A stretch of DNA of 31,504 nucleotides from a virus (lineage: Duplodnaviria; Caudoviricetes). The stretch is from the IMG/VR virus record IMGVR_UViG_3300032257_000079, positions 1 through 31,504 of that record; one strand, 5' to 3'. Below the pieces are notes generated by a model. It was not told where the DNA came from. It did no database searches and saw nothing but the letters and a program-made list of their open reading frames with translations. Each line of letters starts with the position of its first letter. Within the stretch, counting starts at the first letter, position 1. Both the position numbers and the translations under genes were made by a program. Of the stretch, positions 1,047 through 31,339 are shown in pieces.

Positions 1047-1334
1047 TTACGACGCGTCCTTGAGCGCTTTGCTGGCAATGCTGTAGGGCAACCCGGCGGG
1101 ATCACCTGCATAAATCCAATCAAGAGAAACGCCAAATTGGATTTTAAGACGTGTTGCTGCGGCTGGATCAATCATGGCCTTGCCGTGTTCCCATTGTGAA
1201 TAGGTGTTCGGTTGAACATTTATTGCTTCACAAACATCTTTAGATGATAAGCCTAGCGCAAGCCTAGCCGCTTTTAAACGTTGGCCCGCTTCTAAAATAA
1301 AATCAGGTGATCGGGAAAATTTTGGCATAAGCAT
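1047..1334 (-). CDS. XRE-family HTH phage repressor (CI-like), no peptidase domain
   Basis: RLKAARLALGLSSKDVCEAINVQPNTYSQWEHG...GVSLDWIYAG is a typical Cro/C1 HTH; divergent from a cro-like gene. Confidence 0.9.
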   Translation of the reverse strand: MLMPKFSRSPDFILEAGQRLKAARLALGLSSKDVCEAINVQPNTYSQWEHGKAMIDPAAATRLKIQFGVSLDWIYAGDPAGLPYSIASKALKDAS

Positions 1335-1337
1335 AAT

Positions 1338-1407
1338 TTCACATTTTAGATGAAATAAGTCATTTCATAAATTTATGTTGACAGACTTCACAAGAGATGA
1401 ATATTAT
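1338..1407. promoter_or_regulatory. PR/PRM-like divergent switch region with operators
   Basis: PR: TTGACA 1378-1383, 18 nt, TATTAT 1402-1407, with operator TTCACAAGAGATGAA (1387-1401) in the spacer; related site TTCACATTTTAGATGAA 1338-1354; palindrome CATAAATTTATG 1366-1377; minus-strand TTTATG-N17-TAAAAT could be PRM. Confidence 0.8.
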
Positions 1408-1414
1408 TTGCGCC

Positions 1415-1624
1415 ATGACAGTGAATGAACTCATCGATGAATTTGGTGGAACGACGGCAACAGCGCGGTTGTTTGGCGTGTTGCCCAGTGCGGTTTCAAA
1501 CTGGCGCAAGTTCGGATCATTTCCCGGAAGATTGCATTTCCGGATTTTACGTGAAGCCGAACAGCGCGGTATTAAAATCACTGATCAGATTTTTTCTGTG
1601 CGGTTTTCAGGTGAAGCCGCATGA
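1415..1624 (+). CDS. Cro-like HTH protein
   Basis: LIDEFGGTTATARLFGVLPSAVSNWRKFGSFP is a Cro-type HTH; first gene after PR; ATG 1415 chosen because 1397 lies inside the promoter. Confidence 0.88.
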   Translation: MTVNELIDEFGGTTATARLFGVLPSAVSNWRKFGSFPGRLHFRILREAEQRGIKITDQIFSVRFSGEAA

Positions 1625-1788
1625 TTATTTTGTTGAATATCACTGGTTTGATCATCCGCGCCATCGACCAAGGCATCGATCAGGTCACCCAGCGTGACCA
1701 GCAATGGTGCATGGCCGGAATGGCCAATAGCCAGTCTGCGAATTTCGGCGGCATGTTTTTTCAGTTGTTTTTTCAGATCGTTATTCAT
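1585..1788 (-). CDS. Small helical hypothetical protein antisense to the early operon
   Basis: ATG at 1788 with AAGGA about 10 nt upstream; MNNDLKKQLKKHAAEIRRLAIGHSGHAPLLVTLGDLIDALVDG looks amphipathic and protein-like. Confidence 0.5.
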   Translation of the reverse strand: MNNDLKKQLKKHAAEIRRLAIGHSGHAPLLVTLGDLIDALVDGADDQTSDIQQNNHAASPENRTEKI

Positions 1789-1869
1789 TTTCAGCACATC
1801 CTTGATCAGTTGTCGGGCGGATTTGGTCCGCACATCAACATTGCCCGTGCCGGGGGTGCAAAGCCATGA
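1621..1869 (+). CDS. 82-codon ORF coupled at both ends (possible bridging ORF)
   Basis: ATGA overlap with cro stop (1621-1624) and with next gene start (1866-1869); composition looks like an antisense shadow. Confidence 0.4.
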   Translation: MIILLNITGLIIRAIDQGIDQVTQRDQQWCMAGMANSQSANFGGMFFQLFFQIVIHFQHILDQLSGGFGPHINIARAGGAKP

Positions 1870-2417
1870 CCTTGACGGTCCATAAAATGTTTGAAGCGGC
1901 GGGTTTTGAAAACCCCATCGGGGAACGGTTGGCAAACTGGTTGCGCCCATATCAGGCCAAAGAATTGGCCCGCATGTTTGGGGTCGAGGCGCGTACGGCA
2001 AAAAACTGGCGCGGCGGGAAATACCCGCAAATGCGGCACCTGATTTTGATGGCCGAACGCTGGGGCGTGGCTTTTTTAGAAGACATATTTGAGCCGGTAT
2101 TATCCGAAACCGACATCAGTTTGTCGCGCCGTCTGGAACGCATCGAAGCCGACGCACGGCGGTTAAAACAGGAGATGGAAATTGAAGAAAATAATGGCGC
2201 GCATTTTGGCGCGGCTACACATCAATTGGGCCATGCGTCATCTGTCCGCAGCACGGTGGTGGCGCGGACGTTACGAAAAACCGGACTAATTTTATCATTC
2301 GTGGCCGTGATGGTTTCGATCACAGTTGTGCGCGATGACATGCGCCGGGTCCGTCCAGCCCCCAACGGTCGCACGGTGGCGGCACGGGTGATGCGCCCGG
2401 GGCGGGGTGATGCGTGA
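1866..2417 (+). CDS. HTH-containing protein in the CII position, with coiled coil and hydrophobic C-terminal segment
   Basis: AKELARMFGVEARTAKNWRGG HTH; LSRRLERIEADARRLKQE coil; GLILSFVAVMVSITVV hydrophobic stretch. Confidence 0.7.
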   Translation: MTLTVHKMFEAAGFENPIGERLANWLRPYQAKELARMFGVEARTAKNWRGGKYPQMRHLILMAERWGVAFLEDIFEPVLSETDISLSRRLERIEADARRLKQEMEIEENNGAHFGAATHQLGHASSVRSTVVARTLRKTGLILSFVAVMVSITVVRDDMRRVRPAPNGRTVAARVMRPGRGDA

Positions 2418-2686
2418 TGAATAAAATCAGTTTTTTAGAATCCAAACAACCCTCCCTGAAACAAACTGGTGCGCGGGCGGGTGGTGGTAAAATCCATTTC
2501 CAATCCGTGCACCACTTTTTTTTAAAAGTGTTTAGTTGGAAATTTTGGGATGAAATTGCACCGACACCAGACCGCGAATGGGATCGCTGTATCCCGGTTG
2601 CGATCATGTTGATCTGGTTATCGTTGGCATTAGGCGCGTCGGGGATTATGCACGTCGTGATTTATTTAACCGGTGACTTGCCATGA
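2414..2686 (+). CDS. Hypothetical membrane protein
   Basis: GTGA overlap with upstream gene; C-terminal hydrophobic segment IPVAIMLIWLSLALGASGIMHVVIYL. Confidence 0.6.
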   Translation: MMNKISFLESKQPSLKQTGARAGGGKIHFQSVHHFFLKVFSWKFWDEIAPTPDREWDRCIPVAIMLIWLSLALGASGIMHVVIYLTGDLP

Positions 2687-3123
2687 ATGAATTAAATTAC
2701 CAGCGCCGCCGTCCGTTAACGCGTCGCGATGCACAAATCATTCGTATCGAATGGGTCAAATCCATCGGCGATATTCCGCAACCGTTTGATGTGGGGTTTG
2801 GGTTTTATGCAGCCACCAATGCGGCGGGTAATTTTTTGGCATCCGAAATGTGCGAAGTTTTTGCCGCAGGTCCCAAAGAGGGATCGTTGATGCAAGACAT
2901 CATCCACGGCGGATGTATCAAGGCTTCAATGTTGCGGCAAATGGGGATGCCGTTCAAAGATATTTTAAAAAGCGTCGCCGGTGTCACGGTCGATAAATTC
3001 CCTAGCCCCGATCCGGCCACCACAAATGGCCCGCCGTTGTTTATTGGCGGCACACCCAACATCGCCATTTTGAAAACGGCGGCGATTGTTGAAATGGAAA
3101 GGTTAAATAATGAAACAAAATAA
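2683..3123 (+). CDS. Stand-alone TSCPD-like domain protein (resembles class II ribonucleotide reductase C-terminal domain)
   Basis: Pattern RRPLTRR...VGFGFY...EVFAAGPKEGSLMQDIIHGGCIKASMLRQMGMP resembles RxRLPxRR...EIF..xGKxGS...SxxLQxGxP of TSCPD proteins (recognised by eye). Confidence 0.6.
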   Translation: MNELNYQRRRPLTRRDAQIIRIEWVKSIGDIPQPFDVGFGFYAATNAAGNFLASEMCEVFAAGPKEGSLMQDIIHGGCIKASMLRQMGMPFKDILKSVAGVTVDKFPSPDPATTNGPPLFIGGTPNIAILKTAAIVEMERLNNETK

Positions 3124-3406
3124 TGAATTTTATCCAATGTCTGAAATTGAGCGGGCAAAAATGGTTGCTGTTGGAAAGCTTGATCCAGCGGCCATTGAAA
3201 TTGTTTGGCACGCGCTTGACGCGGCCAAGACCGGTGGCGTGATCAAAGACTGCCCGTTTACGGGCGGGGCGGCGGACCGCTGGCATGATTATTTTTCGGT
3301 GTTCAAAGCATCGGTGCAGACGCCGGCTGACGTGGTTCGGGTCCCGGCGCGGGACCGACAAGTTGCGCCCGCAAATTATTACTGGAACCGGGGATCGATG
3401 GCGTGA
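3110..3406 (+). CDS. Hypothetical protein
   Basis: 98-aa ORF overlapping both neighbours in the early operon, GGAAAGG upstream. Confidence 0.65.
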   Translation: MKQNNEFYPMSEIERAKMVAVGKLDPAAIEIVWHALDAAKTGGVIKDCPFTGGAADRWHDYFSVFKASVQTPADVVRVPARDRQVAPANYYWNRGSMA

Positions 3407-3588
3407 AAATCAGACACAAATATTATATTCCTAAATGGCGGGAATTTTTCTGGATCATTTTCATGTTGGCGGGCGGGGTAATGATCAATGCCGGTTGTTG
3501 GTTATCACGGATTGGTGGCCGGGTTTTTGGCTACGGCGTTGAAATTCGTTACGCTAAAGAATTCAAAAAAGTGCGGGGTTCAAAATAA
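3403..3588 (+). CDS. Small hypothetical membrane protein
   Basis: GTGA overlap upstream, TAATG overlap downstream; one hydrophobic segment. Confidence 0.55.
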   Translation: MKIRHKYYIPKWREFFWIIFMLAGGVMINAGCWLSRIGGRVFGYGVEIRYAKEFKKVRGSK

Positions 3589-3995
3589 TGAGCCAGTGTA
3601 TCACGGCCCACTTTTTAAACCTGCCGCTATTTTCGGTTGGCCAAGACCGCGCCATTATGACGGTTTGGTGTTCGGGGCGGTCGTTCCCGGCTGTGGTCGC
3701 GGAATTCCGAAATTTAGCCAAAGATTTCGAACGGCCGTTTGATGACGTGGCACGCCGGGTCAGTTTTTTAATCAGTCATGAAGCGTTTCAAATGGGACGA
3801 GTCGATCCAATTCAACGCGCACTTTACACGCTGGGAAAACGGGCCAGCCGGGCACCGACGACACCGGGCGGTTTTAATCTGGATGGAAAGTCCGTGCGCG
3901 CGATTGATGTCATTAATGCCGCCAACAAAATTTTGTTGATGATCGGTGAGGTGGAAATTGATTATCCATTAATAGAAATCAAAGGGGCGGCGTAA
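3588..3995 (+). CDS. Hypothetical phage protein
   Basis: Coupled ORF; C-terminal GFNLDGKSVRAIDVINAANKIL...IDYP motif reminiscent of alphaproteobacterial phage proteins. Confidence 0.7.
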   Translation: MSQCITAHFLNLPLFSVGQDRAIMTVWCSGRSFPAVVAEFRNLAKDFERPFDDVARRVSFLISHEAFQMGRVDPIQRALYTLGKRASRAPTTPGGFNLDGKSVRAIDVINAANKILLMIGEVEIDYPLIEIKGAA

Positions 3996-4415
3996 ATGAA
4001 AAATAATAAATTTTTGGGGATTGATCCGGCGGGGCTGCGGCTTTACCGGGTGATGGAAAAATCATCCAAGGCCGGGGAAGTATGCCCAACCACGCGCGAT
4101 TTGGTTGTTGCCGGAATTGGCGGGGATAATGCCAGAGTCAACCGGTTGTTTGGTGATTTGATTAAACGGGGGCTGATCACGGTCCGGTGCGTTGGTGGTC
4201 ACCAGCGCCGTATTGTCACCATCGTTGAAACCGGCCTGACGACCTCGGATAAGGTTGGCTGGGGCGCGCGCAAAAACGGCGACAACAGGAATTGCCTTAA
4301 ATGTCACCGGGATTTTATGTCAACGTGGATGGGAAACCGTATTTGCCCGGTCTGTCGGGATTCGTCGGAATGGCGTTCCGGTGATGACGGTGGCGATTAC
4401 CGGATGGTCGGATGA
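3996..4415 (+). CDS. Winged-helix protein with C-terminal zinc finger
   Basis: CPTTRDL...RVNRLFGDLIKRGLITV wHTH-like; CLKC-x13-CPVC (CLKCHRDFMSTWMGNRICPVC). Confidence 0.75.
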   Translation: MKNNKFLGIDPAGLRLYRVMEKSSKAGEVCPTTRDLVVAGIGGDNARVNRLFGDLIKRGLITVRCVGGHQRRIVTIVETGLTTSDKVGWGARKNGDNRNCLKCHRDFMSTWMGNRICPVCRDSSEWRSGDDGGDYRMVG

Positions 4416-4423
4416 TGGAAAAA

Positions 4424-4852
4424 TCAAGCCGCCTTATCTTCGACCACCAGCGTGCGACCCAAAATTTTAAGGGCGGTTTCAACCTGTCCGATGTGCGATC
4501 GATGATCCGGGTTACACAATTTGCGCACGGCGCTTTCCGAAATATCAAGCCGCGCCGCCAAGGCAACTTTGGTGATTTTTTGTGTCCGCATGGCGGAATA
4601 AAGCGCCAGTTTCGCGGCGACCACCGGTGGCAAGGGAACAAGCACCTGATTTTTGGTGGCGGTGCCGGGGGACGGGATATCACGTTTTTCATGGACGTAC
4701 CCGGCCAAGGCAACGGCCAGCGCGTCTTCGGCCAATTCAAGGCATTTGTCCATTGTTTGGCCGCCGGTCAAGGCTTCGGGCACATCATTAAATGTGACAA
4801 AAAACCCGCCGTCATTTTCCGGGGTGATGGTGCAGGGGTAAAGATAGCGCAT
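4424..4852 (-). CDS. hicB: HicB family antitoxin with C-terminal HTH
   Basis: YPCTITPENDGGFFVTFNDVPEALTGGQT..E.LELAEDAL and AKLALYSAMRTQKITKVALAARLDISESAVRKLCNPDH match E. coli-type HicB. Confidence 0.93.
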   Translation of the reverse strand: MRYLYPCTITPENDGGFFVTFNDVPEALTGGQTMDKCLELAEDALAVALAGYVHEKRDIPSPGTATKNQVLVPLPPVVAAKLALYSAMRTQKITKVALAARLDISESAVRKLCNPDHRSHIGQVETALKILGRTLVVEDKAA

Positions 4853-4855
4853 TTT

Positions 4856-5062
4856 TTAAAACTCCGATTTTTTAATATCAAGCTGTTTCAACATGGCGTT
4901 CAAAAGTCCTGTTCCGATTTCATGGTCGACCACGGTGGTAAATTTATCACCGTAATAAACGCGGCCATGGCTGCCTTTGCCCGTTTTGCTGTCAACGCGG
5001 ACGGCCATCCCGGTTTTTTTCGAAAGGCGTTTCAAACGCTTGATGAATTGTTGTCTGTTCAT
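4856..5062 (-). CDS. hicA: HicA family mRNA interferase toxin
   Basis: 68 aa, basic, GKGSH catalytic motif, EIGTGLLNAMLKQLDI C-terminus; directly upstream of hicB. Confidence 0.92.
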   Translation of the reverse strand: MNRQQFIKRLKRLSKKTGMAVRVDSKTGKGSHGRVYYGDKFTTVVDHEIGTGLLNAMLKQLDIKKSEF

Positions 5063-5068
5063 GCAATT

Positions 5069-5122
5069 ATAATCGCACTTAAAGGTGCGTTTGTCAATAT
5101 AAAAAACGCACTAAAAGGTGCG
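5069..5122 (-). promoter_or_regulatory. hicAB promoter with two palindromic HicB operators
   Basis: CGCAC-TTAAAG-GTGCG (5074-5089) and CGCAC-TAAAAG-GTGCG (5107-5122) flank minus-strand TTGACA (5097-5092); AT-rich -10 region around 5066-5074. Confidence 0.8.
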
Positions 5123-5148
5123 AAAATTAATCATAAAATGGTGGCGGC

Positions 5149-6177
5149 ATGAGTATTCAAATTATTCAAGGTGATGTTTGTGAACGGTTGGCTGATTTGC
5201 CTGAAAATTCTGTTGATTGCGTGGTCACAAGTCCGCCGTATTGGGGGCTTCGTGATTACGGTGTTGACGGGCAGATCGGGCTAGAACCGACATTGTCTGA
5301 ACACATTGAAAAAATGGTTAACGTTTTTCGTGATGTCCGCCGGGTGATGAAGCCATCGGCGACGTTGTGGCTGAACTACGGTGATTGTTACGCCACCAGC
5401 CCCAACGGGCGAAGTGCTGCGGCCACAAAAGCCGCGGGCGGTGATGATCGAACGTTCCGGGATAAACCGTTTTCAACAATTCAAGGTGTTCTCAAGGCAA
5501 AAGATTTATGCATGGTGCCAAACCGTTTGGCGATTGCGTTACAGGAAGACGGTTGGTGGGTCAGGTCTGAAATTATCTGGGCCAAACCCAATCCGATGCC
5601 GGAAAGTATTACAGATCGTCCGGCGACAGCGCATGAGAAAATATTTTTGTTATCAAAATCAGCTAAATATTTTTATGACGCCGAAGCCGTACGTGAAAAA
5701 TCAAGCAGTTGTCCTGATAATTGGAAAAATCCCGACGGTTGGGATACGGATCCCGGCAGTCATGGGAACATCCATCGATTAGGTAGATCAAAAGGGAAGC
5801 CCGCAAAAGAAAAAAAGAAACGTGGGTCAGGCCGTCCCCATGCCGGATTTGATGCCCGTTGGGACAACATGAGCCGCAAAGAACAACAGGAGAATGGGCG
5901 AAATTGCCGGAATGTCTGGACTATTGCGACCAAGCCGTTTTCAGCGGCGCATTTTGCGACTTTCCCTCCAGAATTGGCGGCGAGGTGCATCAAGGCCGGG
6001 TGCCCGGTTGGTGGGGTGGTGCTTAATCCGTTTGGTGGGGCCGGGACAACGGGATTGGTTGCCGATCAGTTACAACGTGACGCGATTTTGATCGAACTCA
6101 ACCCGGAATATGTTGAAATCGCCCAGCGCCGCATTGCCGAAAATGCCGGGATGTTTTCGGCTGTGGAGGTGGCATGA
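5149..6177 (+). CDS. Orphan DNA methyltransferase (N4-C/N6-A, beta class)
   Basis: VTSPPYW motif IV near N-terminus, HFATFPPEL and PFGGAGTTG motif I near C-terminus. Confidence 0.93.
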   Translation: MSIQIIQGDVCERLADLPENSVDCVVTSPPYWGLRDYGVDGQIGLEPTLSEHIEKMVNVFRDVRRVMKPSATLWLNYGDCYATSPNGRSAAATKAAGGDDRTFRDKPFSTIQGVLKAKDLCMVPNRLAIALQEDGWWVRSEIIWAKPNPMPESITDRPATAHEKIFLLSKSAKYFYDAEAVREKSSSCPDNWKNPDGWDTDPGSHGNIHRLGRSKGKPAKEKKKRGSGRPHAGFDARWDNMSRKEQQENGRNCRNVWTIATKPFSAAHFATFPPELAARCIKAGCPVGGVVLNPFGGAGTTGLVADQLQRDAILIELNPEYVEIAQRRIAENAGMFSAVEVA

Positions 6178-7331
6178 TGGTCGGAAAAATTCCGGAACAA
6201 GTCATATCTGAAATTATCAAACGAACGGATTTGGTGGCCGTGGCGTCGCGGGTGGCTGGATTAAAATTCCGGGAACGCCGGCGCGGAGATTTTTGGGCTT
6301 GTTGCCCGTTCCATGCGGAAAAAACACCCAGTTTTCACATTGAACAACGCAAAGGCACATACCACTGTTTCGGCTGTTCTGCCGGTGGGTCGGCGTTCCA
6401 GTTTTTAATGTCGATCGATAATATTTCATTCAAAGAAGCGGCCATTGAACTGGCAGCCTTGGCCGGGATCGAAATCGAAGGCGAAACATCAAAACCACGC
6501 CGTAAACCACAGCCGATGGTCGTTGACCAAAAAGCCGTGGTTGCCAGCGAGGCGGCATCGGCGGAAGCCGCCCGGCGTAAAGCTTTCGACAAATGGTGGC
6601 GGCCACGCAAACCATTTGCTGGATCACTTGCTGAAACATATCTGGTTAACGTGCGGGGGATCGCCGGGGATGTAGCGCGGTCGTTCAAAAATTTAGGTTA
6701 TCTGGATGATGCGCCATTTTACGCGCAATTGTCGCGTGGTCGGTTTGATGTGGTTAACCGCGGCCCGGCCATGGTGGCGGGTTTGCAATATGCCGATGGA
6801 CGGTTTGCCGGTGTGCACGTCACGTTTTTAAAGGCGGATGGTTCAGGGAAATTGGAATTACATGATCCCATGAATGCGGGTAAAAAACTGCCCGCGAAAA
6901 AAGTTCAAGGTCGTCCGTGGGGATCGGCAATCCGGTTAACCGATACGGCACCGCGCATGGTGGCGGGCGAAGGCATCGAAACCACTGCCGCTGTTATTGA
7001 CGCCACCGGGTATGCCGGATGGGTGGCTTATTCATTGGGTAATTTGGTTGGTGCCGCCAATGGCAAAGGCGCGCGGCATCCGGAAAATGGACGAACGCGT
7101 TTGCCGTCAACCACGCCTGATATGGGGCGTCACGGATTTTTACCACCTAAACAATGCGAACACCTGACTTTGTTAGGCGACGGCGACACCAAAGACGTGT
7201 GGATGTTGCGGGCGTTGCTGAAACGGGGTTGCCTGCGGTTTCAAATGTTGGGTGTCAAAACCGATTACAGTATGTCCGATTCAGGGCGTGATTTTAATGA
7301 CTATTTGATGAAGGAACAAGCCCATGGATGA
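6174..7331 (+). CDS. Primase: CHC2 zinc finger plus Toprim domain
   Basis: CPFHAEKTPSF...YHCFGC zinc finger; GEGIET, LLGDGD and DFND Toprim motifs. Confidence 0.9.
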   Translation: MMVGKIPEQVISEIIKRTDLVAVASRVAGLKFRERRRGDFWACCPFHAEKTPSFHIEQRKGTYHCFGCSAGGSAFQFLMSIDNISFKEAAIELAALAGIEIEGETSKPRRKPQPMVVDQKAVVASEAASAEAARRKAFDKWWRPRKPFAGSLAETYLVNVRGIAGDVARSFKNLGYLDDAPFYAQLSRGRFDVVNRGPAMVAGLQYADGRFAGVHVTFLKADGSGKLELHDPMNAGKKLPAKKVQGRPWGSAIRLTDTAPRMVAGEGIETTAAVIDATGYAGWVAYSLGNLVGAANGKGARHPENGRTRLPSTTPDMGRHGFLPPKQCEHLTLLGDGDTKDVWMLRALLKRGCLRFQMLGVKTDYSMSDSGRDFNDYLMKEQAHG

Positions 7332-8787
7332 TAATCAACAACCGCCGACCGGCGCCCGGGCACGCATAAAAAATCAGGTCGATGGTGGTAATGTAACGGC
7401 CATGCCGCCGGCCACCATCCAGCGTCCGAATATGATGTTTTTTGATCCAGAAGAACTCAACGAAAAATATGCCGTTGTCATGGTCGGATCGAAGACCATG
7501 ATTTTAGAAGAAAATTTCAATGATTTTGAAGACCAGGACGATCGCGTTCCAGCACAGGATCGGTTGCGATTTATGGCCTTTGATGCGCTTGAAAAATGGA
7601 TGGCGAACGATTTGCTGTACGACAAGGATAAGGACAAGGAAGTCGCTAAATCCCGCGTGTGGTTGGCGTCGCCCAGGCGGCGACAATTTCGCGGTGTGGT
7701 GTTTGAACCCGAAGGCGCGCCGGGCGGATATTATAATCTCTGGCGCGGTTGGGCGGTGGAACCGTCGGAAAATGGATCTTGTAAAAAATTCAAAGATCAT
7801 ATGATGACAAATCTTTGTAACAACGATCAGGATTTGTTTAACCGGGTGTTTGGCTGGGCGGCGCATATATTCCAGCGACCCACAGAACGGTTAGGTGTGG
7901 CCTTGGCAATCCGTGGCGGTAAAGGCACCGGGAAAACTTTTTTTGGTGAAGCCATCGGCTATTTAATGGGGTCGCATCATTTGTTGGTTGATGACAGCCG
8001 CTATGTCACCGGGAATTTTAACGCACATATGGCCAGTTTGTTGTTGTTGCAAGCCGACGAAGGTTTTTGGGCGGGGGATGTTGCCGCCGAAGGGCGATTA
8101 AAAGGCCTGGTCACATCAAAAACACAAATGATCGAAGCCAAAGGTGTCGACGCTATTTCTGTTAAAAATTATCTGCGGTTAATGGTTACATCAAACGAAG
8201 ACTGGGTGGTGCCGGCGTCATACGATGAACGACGATTTATGGTCATTGATTGCGCCGATTATGCCAAACAAAACCGCCAATATTTTAAAGAAATCGATGA
8301 TGAATTGAAAAACGGCGGATATGAACGGCTGCTTTTCGAATTATTGAATTTTGATTTATCGCTAGCGCATTTGGGTGATATTCCGCAAACCGATGCCTTG
8401 GTCGAACAAAAATTACGCACGTTAAAACCGGAACGGCAGTGGTGGTACGAATGTTTGCACCGGGGCTGGATCACCCACGGTAAATGGCAAGACATTATCG
8501 ATAAAAACAATGTGCATAAAAACTACAAATCGTTTTGTGATGATTTGGGGGTTAAACATCGGCGGTCGATGTCTGAATTGGTTAGGGGCACGTTAAAACC
8601 TTTGGTGCCGGGGATATCCGAAAAACGAAAAACCGTTGATGATGGTGTTCGGGTACGATCGTTTGTGTTCCCAAACCTTGATGCGTGCCGGGATGCCTTT
8701 GATGAATGGATCGGCGGGCGCGTGCCGTGGTCCGATTTGCCTGAAATTTACGAAACCAAAGAAGAATTTGACGACGATCCGATTTAG
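7324..8787 (+). CDS. Primase-associated SF3 helicase (D5/DUF5906-like)
   Basis: Walker A GGKGTGKT, Walker B LLLQADE, MVTSN and DERRF motifs. Confidence 0.9.
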   Translation: MDDNQQPPTGARARIKNQVDGGNVTAMPPATIQRPNMMFFDPEELNEKYAVVMVGSKTMILEENFNDFEDQDDRVPAQDRLRFMAFDALEKWMANDLLYDKDKDKEVAKSRVWLASPRRRQFRGVVFEPEGAPGGYYNLWRGWAVEPSENGSCKKFKDHMMTNLCNNDQDLFNRVFGWAAHIFQRPTERLGVALAIRGGKGTGKTFFGEAIGYLMGSHHLLVDDSRYVTGNFNAHMASLLLLQADEGFWAGDVAAEGRLKGLVTSKTQMIEAKGVDAISVKNYLRLMVTSNEDWVVPASYDERRFMVIDCADYAKQNRQYFKEIDDELKNGGYERLLFELLNFDLSLAHLGDIPQTDALVEQKLRTLKPERQWWYECLHRGWITHGKWQDIIDKNNVHKNYKSFCDDLGVKHRRSMSELVRGTLKPLVPGISEKRKTVDDGVRVRSFVFPNLDACRDAFDEWIGGRVPWSDLPEIYETKEEFDDDPI

Positions 8788-8852
8788 TCCAGCCAATGGC
8801 CGGGCAATGTCCGGCGTTGTGATGGTCTGAAACACGCAGAAATCTGCGATAG

Positions 8853-9023
8853 GTCCAGTGTGTCCAACCAGTCCACCCAGTTTGTTACATGTACGTAGGC
8901 GCGAATATGCATATTGAATATGTGGTTGGACTGGTTGGACTGGTTGGACATAAGTAATAAAATCAATGGCTTAAGCGGTTTAAATAAGTCCACCCAAAAA
9001 TTACAAAGGTGGACTGGTTGGAC
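8853..9023. repeat. Iteron-like repeats with IHF site: putative replication origin
   Basis: TGGTTGGAC x3 tandem (8923-8949), inverted copy GTCCAACCAGTCCA (8862-8875), GGTGGACTGGTTGGAC (9008-9023); AATCAATGGCTTA (8961-8973) matches IHF consensus WATCAANNNNTTR; immediately after the helicase. Confidence 0.7.
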
Positions 9024-9046
9024 AGAAAAACAGAAAGGAATAATCG

Positions 9047-9478
9047 ATGAGGAAAGTTCAAACGGTACAAGAAAATCAAAGTCATGATGCTATGTCAGCG
9101 GCGCGGGCCGGTGTTGTTGAATGGTTGTTTGAATGTGGCGGTCTTGTCCGCCGTGATGTATTGCCGGATGATATCCGTAGGTTGGTTGGTGCTGTATCCA
9201 GTTTGCCTGATTTTATCCGTGATAAAAATGATTATGCCGGTGATGTTAAAGTTAAACGGCGGGGGCTGTCAGTAGAAGATCATGCGACCTTAGAAAAGTT
9301 TCTGGATGTGATTGTAAGGCTGCCTGCTAATGAACGGCGTGCAGTTTTTGGTAAAGCATGTGGTTATTCTTTTCGAAAGATCGCAAAATCATATCATAAT
9401 GGAATATCCCATCATATTGTTAGACGCAGGTATTATGCTGGAATTACAACGCTTTTGATTTATTTTCAAAAAAAATAA
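9047..9478 (+). CDS. Late-transcription regulator (sigma region-4-like HTH, Q-like position)
   Basis: LPANERRAVFGKACGYSFRKIAK...GISHHIVRRRY; last early gene, directly before a promoter-terminator unit. Confidence 0.7.
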   Translation: MRKVQTVQENQSHDAMSAARAGVVEWLFECGGLVRRDVLPDDIRRLVGAVSSLPDFIRDKNDYAGDVKVKRRGLSVEDHATLEKFLDVIVRLPANERRAVFGKACGYSFRKIAKSYHNGISHHIVRRRYYAGITTLLIYFQKK

Positions 9479-29189: not shown

Positions 29190-29687
29190 ATGGACGACTT
29201 TTTAAAAGTTTTAGGGAAATTATCACCCACCATCGGCACGGCATTGGGTGGCCCGGTCGGCGGTGCGTTGGGTTTGGGCGTTAAAACATTGGTGGCAACG
29301 ATCACCGGCGAAGACGATGCTGATAAAGCGTTGGAATTATTGAAGGCAAACCCTGAATTGATGTCGCAACTTGAAATGCGTATCCGCGAGATTGAACTGG
29401 AAACGTTACGCGTTCATGCCAATGACCGCGACAGCGCCCGTAAACGTCAAATGATCGTCAAAGACAAAACACCGGCGGTGCTGGCCGTCCTGACCTTGGC
29501 GTCATTCTTTGGCTATATCGGTGTGGTGACGTTCCTGCCCAGCGGCGTCATCGATGGCCGCATGGACTTTATCAATCTGGCCGTTGGCTGGTTGGGTGGT
29601 TCCGCCACATCCGTGGTCGCGTACTATTTTGGATCCAGCGCCGGATCCCGTGGCAAAGATGGGTTGCTGGCAAAGATGAAAAGTTAA
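29190..29687 (+). CDS. Holin-like membrane protein
   Basis: PTIGTALGGPVGGALG, DRDSARKRQ, two C-terminal TM segments, YYFGSSAGS. Confidence 0.8.
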   Translation: MDDFLKVLGKLSPTIGTALGGPVGGALGLGVKTLVATITGEDDADKALELLKANPELMSQLEMRIREIELETLRVHANDRDSARKRQMIVKDKTPAVLAVLTLASFFGYIGVVTFLPSGVIDGRMDFINLAVGWLGGSATSVVAYYFGSSAGSRGKDGLLAKMKS

Positions 29688-30190
29688 TTTTCAGCGGCTT
29701 CAAATGAATCTTGCGTGTAAATTTCAAAAGATGATGCGGCTCGTTTTAACAAATCATCAACATCAAACCCGTCCGGGTCGTCAATCCACATCGCCACGGC
29801 AAGCGATTCTATTCCGGCATCAACTTCGATGCTGTCAGGCATCGACTGGGCAATATCTGGATCAGCAACGACAGCAATAAATCGCGGTCGCCATAAATGG
29901 ATGACTAATTCGCTATCTTTGTCTGACAGCGCATCGGATGCGACGACAAATTCCGGCACGATTTTTTTCATAGTCTCATCCAGCGCCCCTTGTGCGAGGT
30001 AGGTCAAGGCTAAGGCCGCAGGGCCGGTGATAGGTTTGTGTGATTTGTGGTCTTGCGATTGCTCCCATCCGCGCACAGTGCGCCCGACGTCGCCCCCGCG
30101 TAGACCGAGCGCTTTCCCTAGTTCTGTTTGTGTCATTGACAGATTTCTGCGCATTTCACGAACTTGGTCGGGGTCAAGTTTATTGTTCAT
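29684..30190 (-). CDS. XRE HTH regulator with additional acidic C-terminal domain
   Basis: PDQVREMRRNLSMTQTELGKALGL...RTVRGWEQ...ITGPAALAL HTH; C-terminal HLWRPRFIAVV domain. Confidence 0.8.
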   Translation of the reverse strand: MNNKLDPDQVREMRRNLSMTQTELGKALGLRGGDVGRTVRGWEQSQDHKSHKPITGPAALALTYLAQGALDETMKKIVPEFVVASDALSDKDSELVIHLWRPRFIAVVADPDIAQSMPDSIEVDAGIESLAVAMWIDDPDGFDVDDLLKRAASSFEIYTQDSFEAAEN

Positions 30191-30191
30191 T

Positions 30192-30593
30192 TTAAAAGCC
30201 TTTTAATAAATTGCGATCATCCCGGATAGCCCGGTTGGCGTCGCCGCGCCTATGTTTTTCGTCAGCTGCTTCGCCTCTTAGGGCTTCATTAGTCCATGCT
30301 TTGCGCATGGTGCCGTTGCGGTAAACGTTGCGGCCTTTACGGCGGGTTTTCTGGCCGGGTGTTAGCGCGTCATGGCCTTCGCTGTCAATAATCTCGAGAC
30401 TAAAGGTATGTTGTTGTTTATCAGCGCCGTAGCTGTCTTTGACAACTAAAGCGCGGACGGTGCGGTCGCCCATAAATTTAGGGCGGCGATGGGATCCGCC
30501 AAAAACGGCTTCTGTAAATTCGATTTGATCACCCGTAACGACATCACCTGTGCAATCAATGGTATATGTGGATTTGTGTGTGGAATTTAACAT
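30192..30593 (-). CDS. Conserved hypothetical protein resembling a plant SAP-associated domain (DUF7699-like)
   Basis: AAGGA RBS; CTGDVVTGD...VKDSYGADKQQHTFSLE...KGRNVYR...W..E..R....EKH.RG motif string. Confidence 0.7.
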   Translation of the reverse strand: MLNSTHKSTYTIDCTGDVVTGDQIEFTEAVFGGSHRRPKFMGDRTVRALVVKDSYGADKQQHTFSLEIIDSEGHDALTPGQKTRRKGRNVYRNGTMRKAWTNEALRGEAADEKHRRGDANRAIRDDRNLLKGF

Positions 30594-30614
30594 TTTGGTT
30601 TATCCTTTTCTGGC

Positions 30615-30670
30615 GGGGCGTTGCCCCTTGTTGATGTAACCAATATAGGAAATTATTTCCTATATGTCAA
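30615..30670 (-). promoter_or_regulatory. Strong promoter with overlapping palindromic operator and 5' UTR hairpin
   Basis: TTGACA (30670-30665), 17 nt, TATATT (30647-30642); perfect 11-bp inverted repeat ATATAGGAAAT-T-ATTTCCTATAT (30643-30665); GGGGCAACGCCCC hairpin before the RBS. Confidence 0.85.
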
Positions 30671-30689
30671 CAAGAAAAATCAATTTTTT

Positions 30690-31232
30690 TTATTTATTTT
30701 CACGCCGCCATTTTTCCGGGTTTATAAATTCCCCGGACCATATCCCCAGCCCTTCGGCTTTGGCCGCATCTTCGGCGGGCACGTATCGTTTAGAATAACG
30801 CCGGTACGCCACCGCCATCCCTTCCCTGACCATCACCCGTCCGACGTCTTCGCCACCCGACAGGCACACGGATATGGCCCTTTTATAGCGGTCTCTAGTC
30901 ACAACTTGGCAAGTGACGTGTTTGCCGTTGATCATCGCCTTTAACCGATCGGCTGCAACCTGACCACACGGCCAATCGTTGTCGTCCTGATCTTTGCACA
31001 TTTGCTTCCATTCCGGCGCATCGATACCCGATACGCGGACCTCAATCCCCTGACGTGAACAACGCCCGTTCTTCTTCGGCCCATCCGGACCAATCACCAA
31101 ACTGTCGCCATCGATCGCACACGCCTGACCGGATATCGTCGCAGGCTTAGTTTGGGCCAGTGTGGTTGTTGAAAACAGGTTGATTACCAGAATAAGAACG
31201 ATTGCTGAACATCTTCCCCTCGTTTTCCCCAC
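30690..31232 (-). CDS. Secreted thermonuclease (SNase-like); start uncertain (GTG 31232 or ATG 31265)
   Basis: Signal-like AIVLILVINLFSTTTLA; IDGDSL, VRVSGIDAPE, DRYKRAISVC, MVREGMAVAY, AEDAAKAEGLGIWSG. Confidence 0.88.
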   Translation of the reverse strand: MGKTRGRCSAIVLILVINLFSTTTLAQTKPATISGQACAIDGDSLVIGPDGPKKNGRCSRQGIEVRVSGIDAPEWKQMCKDQDDNDWPCGQVAADRLKAMINGKHVTCQVVTRDRYKRAISVCLSGGEDVGRVMVREGMAVAYRRYSKRYVPAEDAAKAEGLGIWSGEFINPEKWRRENK

Positions 31233-31303
31233 ATTTCCCCACGGTTTCACTGTTTGTTCCTGCATTATGCTGCATTCTCCTGCAATTCTTATAAATTGAT
31301 GTC

Positions 31304-31339
31304 TTGTCAAAAGGCAAGGGGGGACTTACATTCCGCACC
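31304..31339 (+). promoter_or_regulatory. Stable-RNA-type promoter for tRNA-Ser
   Basis: TTGTCA 31304-31309, 17 nt, TACATT 31327-31332, GC-rich discriminator CCGCACC. Confidence 0.7.

Follow-up and report, generated by a model that had tools for sequence, protein, structure and literature searches.

What keeps a reading frame open across a pair of genes that lie backwards inside an operon? The question is raised by a 31,504-nt window (the whole stretch of DNA analysed) from a temperate phage, in which a cI/cro switch is followed by a rightward early replication operon and a hicAB toxin-antitoxin cassette stands in that operon on the opposite strand (Table 1). A preliminary description of this DNA had reported that a + ORF runs antisense across the cassette and is coupled through ATGA overlaps to the genes on either side, and re-reading of the sequence confirmed this arrangement, which is called a bridge below. 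Comparisons with other loci indicate that the bridge layout is real and recurrent and has very probably been selected. As to its mechanism, the open frame has likely been kept by selection so that ribosomes follow RNA polymerase over the insert.

Table 1. Positions of the features discussed in the early region of the window
Feature	Position	Strand	Details	Basis
cI	1047-1334	minus		Pfam search
cro	1397-1624	+		Pfam search
Upstream operon gene	3996-4415	+	139 aa, function unassigned; C-terminal Cys pairs	phrog_13335
5' ATGA	4412-4415	+	bridge start overlaps stop of gene 3996-4415; second in-frame ATG at 4415	
Bridge ORF	4412-5152	+	246 codons, antisense to hicB, hicA and their promoter	ORF list, translation
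hicB	4424-4852	minus	antitoxin, 142 aa; no TTA, CTA or TCA among 21 Leu and Ser codons	PF15919, PF15970
hicA	4856-5062	minus	toxin, 68 aa; no TTA, CTA or TCA among 10 Leu and Ser codons	PF07927
Predicted hicA promoter	5069-5097	minus	-35 at 5097, extended -10 ending at 5069; 10/12 consensus matches	
Two short palindromes	5073-5123		5074-5089 and 5107-5122	sequence scan
3' ATGA	5149-5152	+	bridge TGA stop overlaps methyltransferase start at 5149	
Methyltransferase	5149-6177	+	N6/N4 DNA methyltransferase, first gene past the bridge	PF01555, phrog_67
Primase	6174-7331	+	DnaG-type; ATGA-coupled to methyltransferase	PF01807, PF13362
DUF5906 protein	7324-8787	+	likely helicase; 8-nt overlap with primase	PF19263

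The hicAB cassette and its operon

The cassette has the make-up of a type II HicAB system, with hicA 3 nt upstream of hicB, HicA and HicB domains in the products, and a promoter and palindromes recognizable in the sequence upstream of hicA; the HicA match scored 26.3 bits (E 8e-6) against a curated cut-off of 27, and a homologue search found 1311 relatives of the HicB protein. The predicted transcription start coincides with the hicA ATG, which makes a leaderless message likely, and the two palindromes are likely HicB operators by analogy with those described for other HicAB systems (PMC11594946). On the other strand, a consensus scan found a promoter-like site at 1378 that is directed into the bridge-bearing operon, and a single transcript would run from it through to 4412. 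The upstream gene that ends in the bridge start retrieved only itself in a homologue search.

The open frame in the window

The bridge shares its codon register with both hicB and hicA, and TTA, CTA and TCA are forbidden to these genes if it is to stay open. The preliminary description held that hicAB avoids these codons while its neighbours use them, and both parts stand: none of the three occurs among the 22 Leu and 9 Ser codons of hicAB, and the methyltransferase gene has 13 of them. In the early genes TTA accounts for 42 of 147 Leu codons, against none in hicAB. The 87-nt promoter region of hicA holds six TAA triplets, none in the bridge frame. Two further features that had been cited in support carry little weight, as the 3-nt gap between hicA and hicB is the commonest one in the family (30/60 loci with hicA), and the ...VAA ending of the bridge product would be a purine-rich ribosome site plus ATGA read in the bridge frame.

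Shuffling synonymous codons, the check that had been proposed, put the chance of an open antisense frame at 4e-4 under the codon table of the genome and at 2e-5 under that of the early genes; for the whole cassette the chance was 2e-4. Under the codon usage of HicB homologues that are not nested and have a similar GC3, it was ~0.08 (0.077 per codon), and other in-register antisense runs in this phage genome span 157-193 codons, the longest being 193 and 177. On its own, the window is suggestive of a selected open frame, not decisive.

HicB relatives inside and outside operons

For a comparative analysis, HicB loci were drawn from viral contigs, genomes, metagenomes and a class-wide genome sample; after removal of 13 duplicates, 215 loci fell into 156 clusters at 88% nucleotide identity, and 18 of these were assigned by curation to a nested group, in which hicB lies backwards within an early operon of an alphaproteobacterial-type phage. 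It was found that hicB is open on the opposite strand in 18/18 nested clusters and in 42/103 GC3-matched non-nested ones, counts that, like the P values, overstate independence because 14 of the 21 bridged loci belong to one HicB clade in a quick tree (bridged loci occur in at least two clades) and because curation came after the frames had been seen. TTA, CTA and TCA make up 0/340 hicB codons in the nested clusters against 109/2309 in the GC3-matched non-nested ones, and control A-ending codons are slightly lower in the nested clusters (0.084 against 0.105). Frequent antisense stops in homologues of the same setting, which had been named beforehand as a sign against selection, were not observed. 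Since curation had followed a look at the frames, the comparison was repeated with a frame-blind gene caller, which placed a spanning frame over 13/18 nested and 12/107 non-nested clusters; among homologues of at least 55%, the spanned fractions were 6/10 and 3/50.

The non-coding DNA and the position of the ends tell the same way. Of the stop triplets in the promoter and gap, 0/34 (16 loci) lie in the bridge frame, compared with 68/210 in 106 controls, and the upstream stop is in coupling phase in 17/18 clusters and 13/14 junction classes, at eight distances from 5 to 356 nt. Two other statistics were set aside: openness of out-of-register hicA (10/10 against 3/32) was dropped as evidence since resampling showed it to be expected from that HicA protein (0.5-0.95 per locus from the protein alone), and the product of the per-locus nulls (1e-21) was rejected as a P value since the loci are related.

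The bridged loci differ in what surrounds them. In the closest phage (L002, 73%), the flanking genes are different and an extra antisense HTH gene is present, and the open frame is bounded by a GTGA overlap at one end and, at the other, by an ATGA overlap with a primase-like start. Soon after that ATGA-coupled start the primase frame is broken (L002:2630-2716), which represents either an assembly error or a real lesion. Rhizobial-type prophages with 35-41% identity have the same layout, the frame lying between methyltransferase or helicase genes and replication initiators or primases. In three loci (L003, L004 and L011) the bridge has its own ribosome site 10-23 nt past the upstream stop, in three different phases, so strict 5' stop-start coupling is not required; an apparent ATGA overlap in L004 was rejected, its partner being a non-gene ORF and the real upstream gene ending 124 nt away. 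In two others (L197 and L209) the bridge continues in frame into the next gene.

Two cases are chromosomal. One (L107:3920-4438) is a hicB gene without hicA that lies backwards between genes for an ABC ATPase and its permease and is bridged, with ATGA at both ends, and the other (L222, G167:C90) is a backwards hicAB with an open bridge and a 21-bp duplication of the ATGA junction, flanked by genes that presumably form a cobalamin operon. Shorter junction duplications are present in L095 (9 bp) and L107 (7 bp). The layout could originate when a cassette enters a stop-start junction, in some cases duplicating a few base pairs, and two ATGA ends result; only in-phase, stop-free inserts would persist, and later changes that create stops would be purged.

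Backwards blocks in phages retrieved by the primase

An independent set was assembled from 22 phage loci found by the window's primase, in which 26 backwards blocks were called between + genes. An open + frame spans 21/26 of these blocks, where ~11 are expected from the summed per-block nulls, in a set that includes some related loci and two low-scoring gene calls. Among blocks with a null below 0.2, 8/10 are spanned against ~0.5 expected, and 20 of the 21 spanned blocks end with a start codon at -4. The five unspanned blocks include a cI region and one block that has an antiterminator gene on one side and an HNH gene on the other. The cargo is unrelated and up to 2.3 kb long, including other HicAB families, HigBA, pentapeptide-repeat and DUF6161 proteins, and the open frames over it have 135-875 codons. 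Two bridges over two-gene cargo at GC 0.54-0.56 (L240:2617-4857, 763 codons, null 0.001; L248:1961-4267, 875 codons, null 0.004) are stronger single cases than the window.

The layout is also found in an isolated phage, Paracoccus phage Pben1, where an unannotated 418-codon + ORF runs ATGA-to-ATGA between the p24 stop and the start codon of the methyltransferase gene p29 and crosses three antisense genes (hicB, hicA and p27). Its null is 0.82 when coding sequence alone is resampled and 0.008 when the non-coding DNA is shuffled too.

Loci without a bridge

The original proposal, that selection maintains an open frame with coupling at both ends, is upheld by these comparative tests as regards selection; the layout is not universal, and the 5' coupling need not be strict. 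Cassettes in late operons, in gammaproteobacterial phages and in low-GC phages are mostly without a bridge. None of nine hicAB loci in named phages other than Pben1 (from gamma-, beta-, one alphaproteobacterial host and one firmicute) has one, some of them not being nested and several lying in late operons. Bridges are also lacking in a phage of GC 0.44 with hicAB in an early operon (L203), in a head-tail cassette (L081/82) and in Chloroflexota loci; the misses in the frame-blind test were L081/82, L024/46/51, L106 and L230. Among seven further Paracoccus blocks, one is open and 0/7 are coupled at both ends. The absence of bridges from late operons and low-GC phages fits antitermination and uncoupled transcription, a fit made after the fact.

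Proposed role of the bridge

Rho terminates untranslated and antisense RNA and thereby causes polarity (PMC12360218; PMC13323073). A stretch of ~740 nt of untranslated antisense RNA ahead of the replication genes would be a Rho target, and a coupled open frame would remove it. The bridge is likely to act as a ribosome path that prevents Rho polarity, so that downstream replication genes are still transcribed. Ribosomes finishing gene 3996-4415 would restart at 4412, cover the ~740 nt that would otherwise be exposed to Rho, and pass on to the methyltransferase, primase and helicase genes. We infer that the bridge is translated, that Rho is the threat and that a stop in the frame carries a fitness cost. 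The ribosome site at the bridge start is weak, at -6.9 kcal/mol where the primase has -14. On the operon strand, the cassette has a small C-over-G skew (+0.02 against -0.04), which gives no clear Rho loading site, and the one weak terminator-like match in this part of the + strand (4556-4574) belongs to a set of 12 such matches where 12.3 are expected by chance.

The main rival to a role against Rho is a ribosome relay or protection of the RNA. Selection would then keep the frame open for another purpose: to pass ribosomes on, through stop-start coupling, to the start that follows, to shield the message against nucleases or against base-pairing with the hicAB transcript, or to help the polymerase past HicB-bound operators and a convergent promoter. 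These possibilities taken together are rather unlikely, yet several observations speak for them. Besides the weakness of the Rho skew signal, the 3' overlap is nearly constant (in the primase set as given above and at most loci of the HicB set), the methyltransferase of the window has a modest ribosome site (-6.2 kcal/mol), and two operator-like palindromes stand in the path of the polymerase. The relay form is weakened by the three bridges that start from their own ribosome site, which shows that an unbroken upstream relay is not needed, and by the many downstream genes that have a purine-rich site of their own.

That the frame is a shadow ORF with leftovers of insertion at an ATGA junction, and that nothing has been selected, is improbable and is largely refuted by the comparative tests. 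In favour of the idea, hicB is open in 36/90 HicB loci, high GC3 favours openness (18/31 controls are open at GC3 0.8-0.95), and the phage genome itself holds the long in-register runs noted above. Junction duplications, as in L222, L095 and L107, would give two ATGA ends without selection, and a 10-mer that occurs both where gene 3996-4415 ends and where the primase gene begins points the same way. A neutral shadow ORF would be no more open than codon usage predicts and its ends would be unrelated to junctions, which is not what was found. Neutrality leaves unexplained the fixed phase at varied distances, the frame-specific absence of stops in non-coding DNA, and the number of low-probability blocks that are spanned in the primase set; it also fails to account for a cassette that has taken up phage-like TTG/CTT usage (19/22 Leu codons in the window, where close homologues favour CTG/CTC) and yet has no TTA.

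The selection target appears to be the open frame (its stops and phase), not the sequence of the bridge protein, and the polypeptide is likely a by-product. The bridge ORF matched no Pfam family, had no homologue among 325 candidates scored, and gave no usable match in the Atlas (recognition 999, best feature score 0.86). Antisense-frame identity is 0.35-0.41 to bridged relatives and 0.37-0.40 to unbridged ones; fourfold-site divergence (0.25/0.57/0.56/0.59 against 0.31/0.47/0.61/0.64) is not consistently reduced, and silent-site divergence of bridged hicB pairs resembles that of unbridged pairs. In a near-identical copy, the single differing site is silent in HicB and changes the bridge protein. 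Purifying selection at the protein level and homologues outside the overlap, which would mark a functional antisense gene, were thus not found. A genuine overlapping gene with a functional product, of the kind represented by olg1 and gene 10 in phage Fc02, which both have exclusion activity (PMC9936078), is a very unlikely reading of the bridge: the bridge is a well-formed coupled ORF that a simple gene caller chose over hicB, and yet it has the null protein-level results just given and bridges elsewhere cross unrelated cargo.

Relation to known systems

The architecture of the window is that of a noncontiguous operon, as described in S. aureus and for tha-1/ith-1 of phage 80alpha (PMC11087260; PMC11034616), in that antisense genes with their own predicted promoter lie between co-oriented genes of a phage operon; what is added to it is the selected stop-free bridge. 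By analogy, switching between lysis and lysogeny through antisense transcription is plausible here as well, and silencing of hicAB by the lytic transcript would fit the noncontiguous-operon model (PMC11087260). In the text available for these two papers, no translated frame over the antisense gene is described; the terms ‘Rho’, ‘polar’ and ‘translational coupling’ are absent from that of PMC11087260, and ‘open reading frame’ and ‘translated’ from that of PMC11034616.

A second parallel is eta of phage P4, an ORF coupled to the gene before it; translation of eta is reported to keep transcription from terminating, which allows the genes beyond it to be read (PMC10111431, citing Forti et al., 1999). 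The bridge is likewise coupled to the gene before it, through the ATGA at 4412-4415. Eta differs in that it lies over a terminator controlled by RNA and over a gene nested on the same strand, and in belonging to the Bro family (PMC10111431). The bridge, in contrast, lies on the complementary strand of unrelated protein genes and has no conservation of its own. No Rfam family matched positions 1300-9100 of the window at gathering score.

The hicAB of Pben1, which stabilised a plasmid, is opposite to the surrounding genes in an operon that leads from cro to a methyltransferase gene (PMC6536676), as in the window; the text available for that paper makes no mention of the 418-codon bridge, of which only the last 77 codons are annotated, as p28. 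The early region of the Pseudomonas phage Fc02 likewise has long opposite-strand ORFs (olg1/gene 10), one of them in the lytic operon, with the difference that both proteins have shown activity (PMC9936078) and the bridge has no protein-level signal. Shadow ORFs, long in-register frames on the antisense strand (PMC8850804), resemble the bridge in their register and in being favoured by high GC3, and differ in that they are not expected to begin and end at operon junctions or to cross non-coding DNA open. Literature searches covering mainly open-access papers found no description of such bridges.

Tentatively, temperate phages of Alphaproteobacteria might have a general class of unannotated ORF whose sole job is to be translated. 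For cargo of any kind (toxin-antitoxin pairs, membrane proteins, pentapeptide proteins), in blocks of up to 2.3 kb, a reversed position in a lytic operon would then require a stop-free opposite strand as a path for ribosomes, and three codons would be forbidden to the cargo; the bridge would replace N-type antitermination and would allow expression of the cargo in the lysogen and its overwriting during lysis. If true, this would show how backwards defence or addiction genes fit into tightly coupled lytic operons without downstream loss, reveal a selective force on codon choice that is exerted from the opposite strand, and account for a class of long antisense ORFs which annotation drops or calls wrongly; p28 of Pben1 (L257:2059-2292) may be such a mis-call. 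Pben1 is isolated and inducible and has a non-pathogenic host (Paracoccus bengalensis DSM 17099), and a direct test by a hicB-silent change is feasible in it.

Other features of the phage

An empty-site relative of the window phage was searched for and none was found, and named phages match the methyltransferase only. The 10-mer mentioned above lies at 4402-4411 and 6176-6185, and sharing at the 10-mer level was found in 60/20,000 random window pairs; it hints that hicAB and the methyltransferase gene may have entered jointly at a former junction with the primase. Three minus-strand genes beyond the lysis module (29684-31310) have stops in all three + frames, as expected since they lie outside an operon. 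The DUF6362 gene at 9047-9478, between the replication and packaging genes, has the position of a late regulator. By eye, the protein encoded at 2683-3123 resembles that of L002:3786-4283, both without Pfam or PHROG match, and the two possibly represent a recurrent early-operon family. An identical copy of the region is present inside a 360-kb contig (L094), so the phage also occurs as an integrated prophage.
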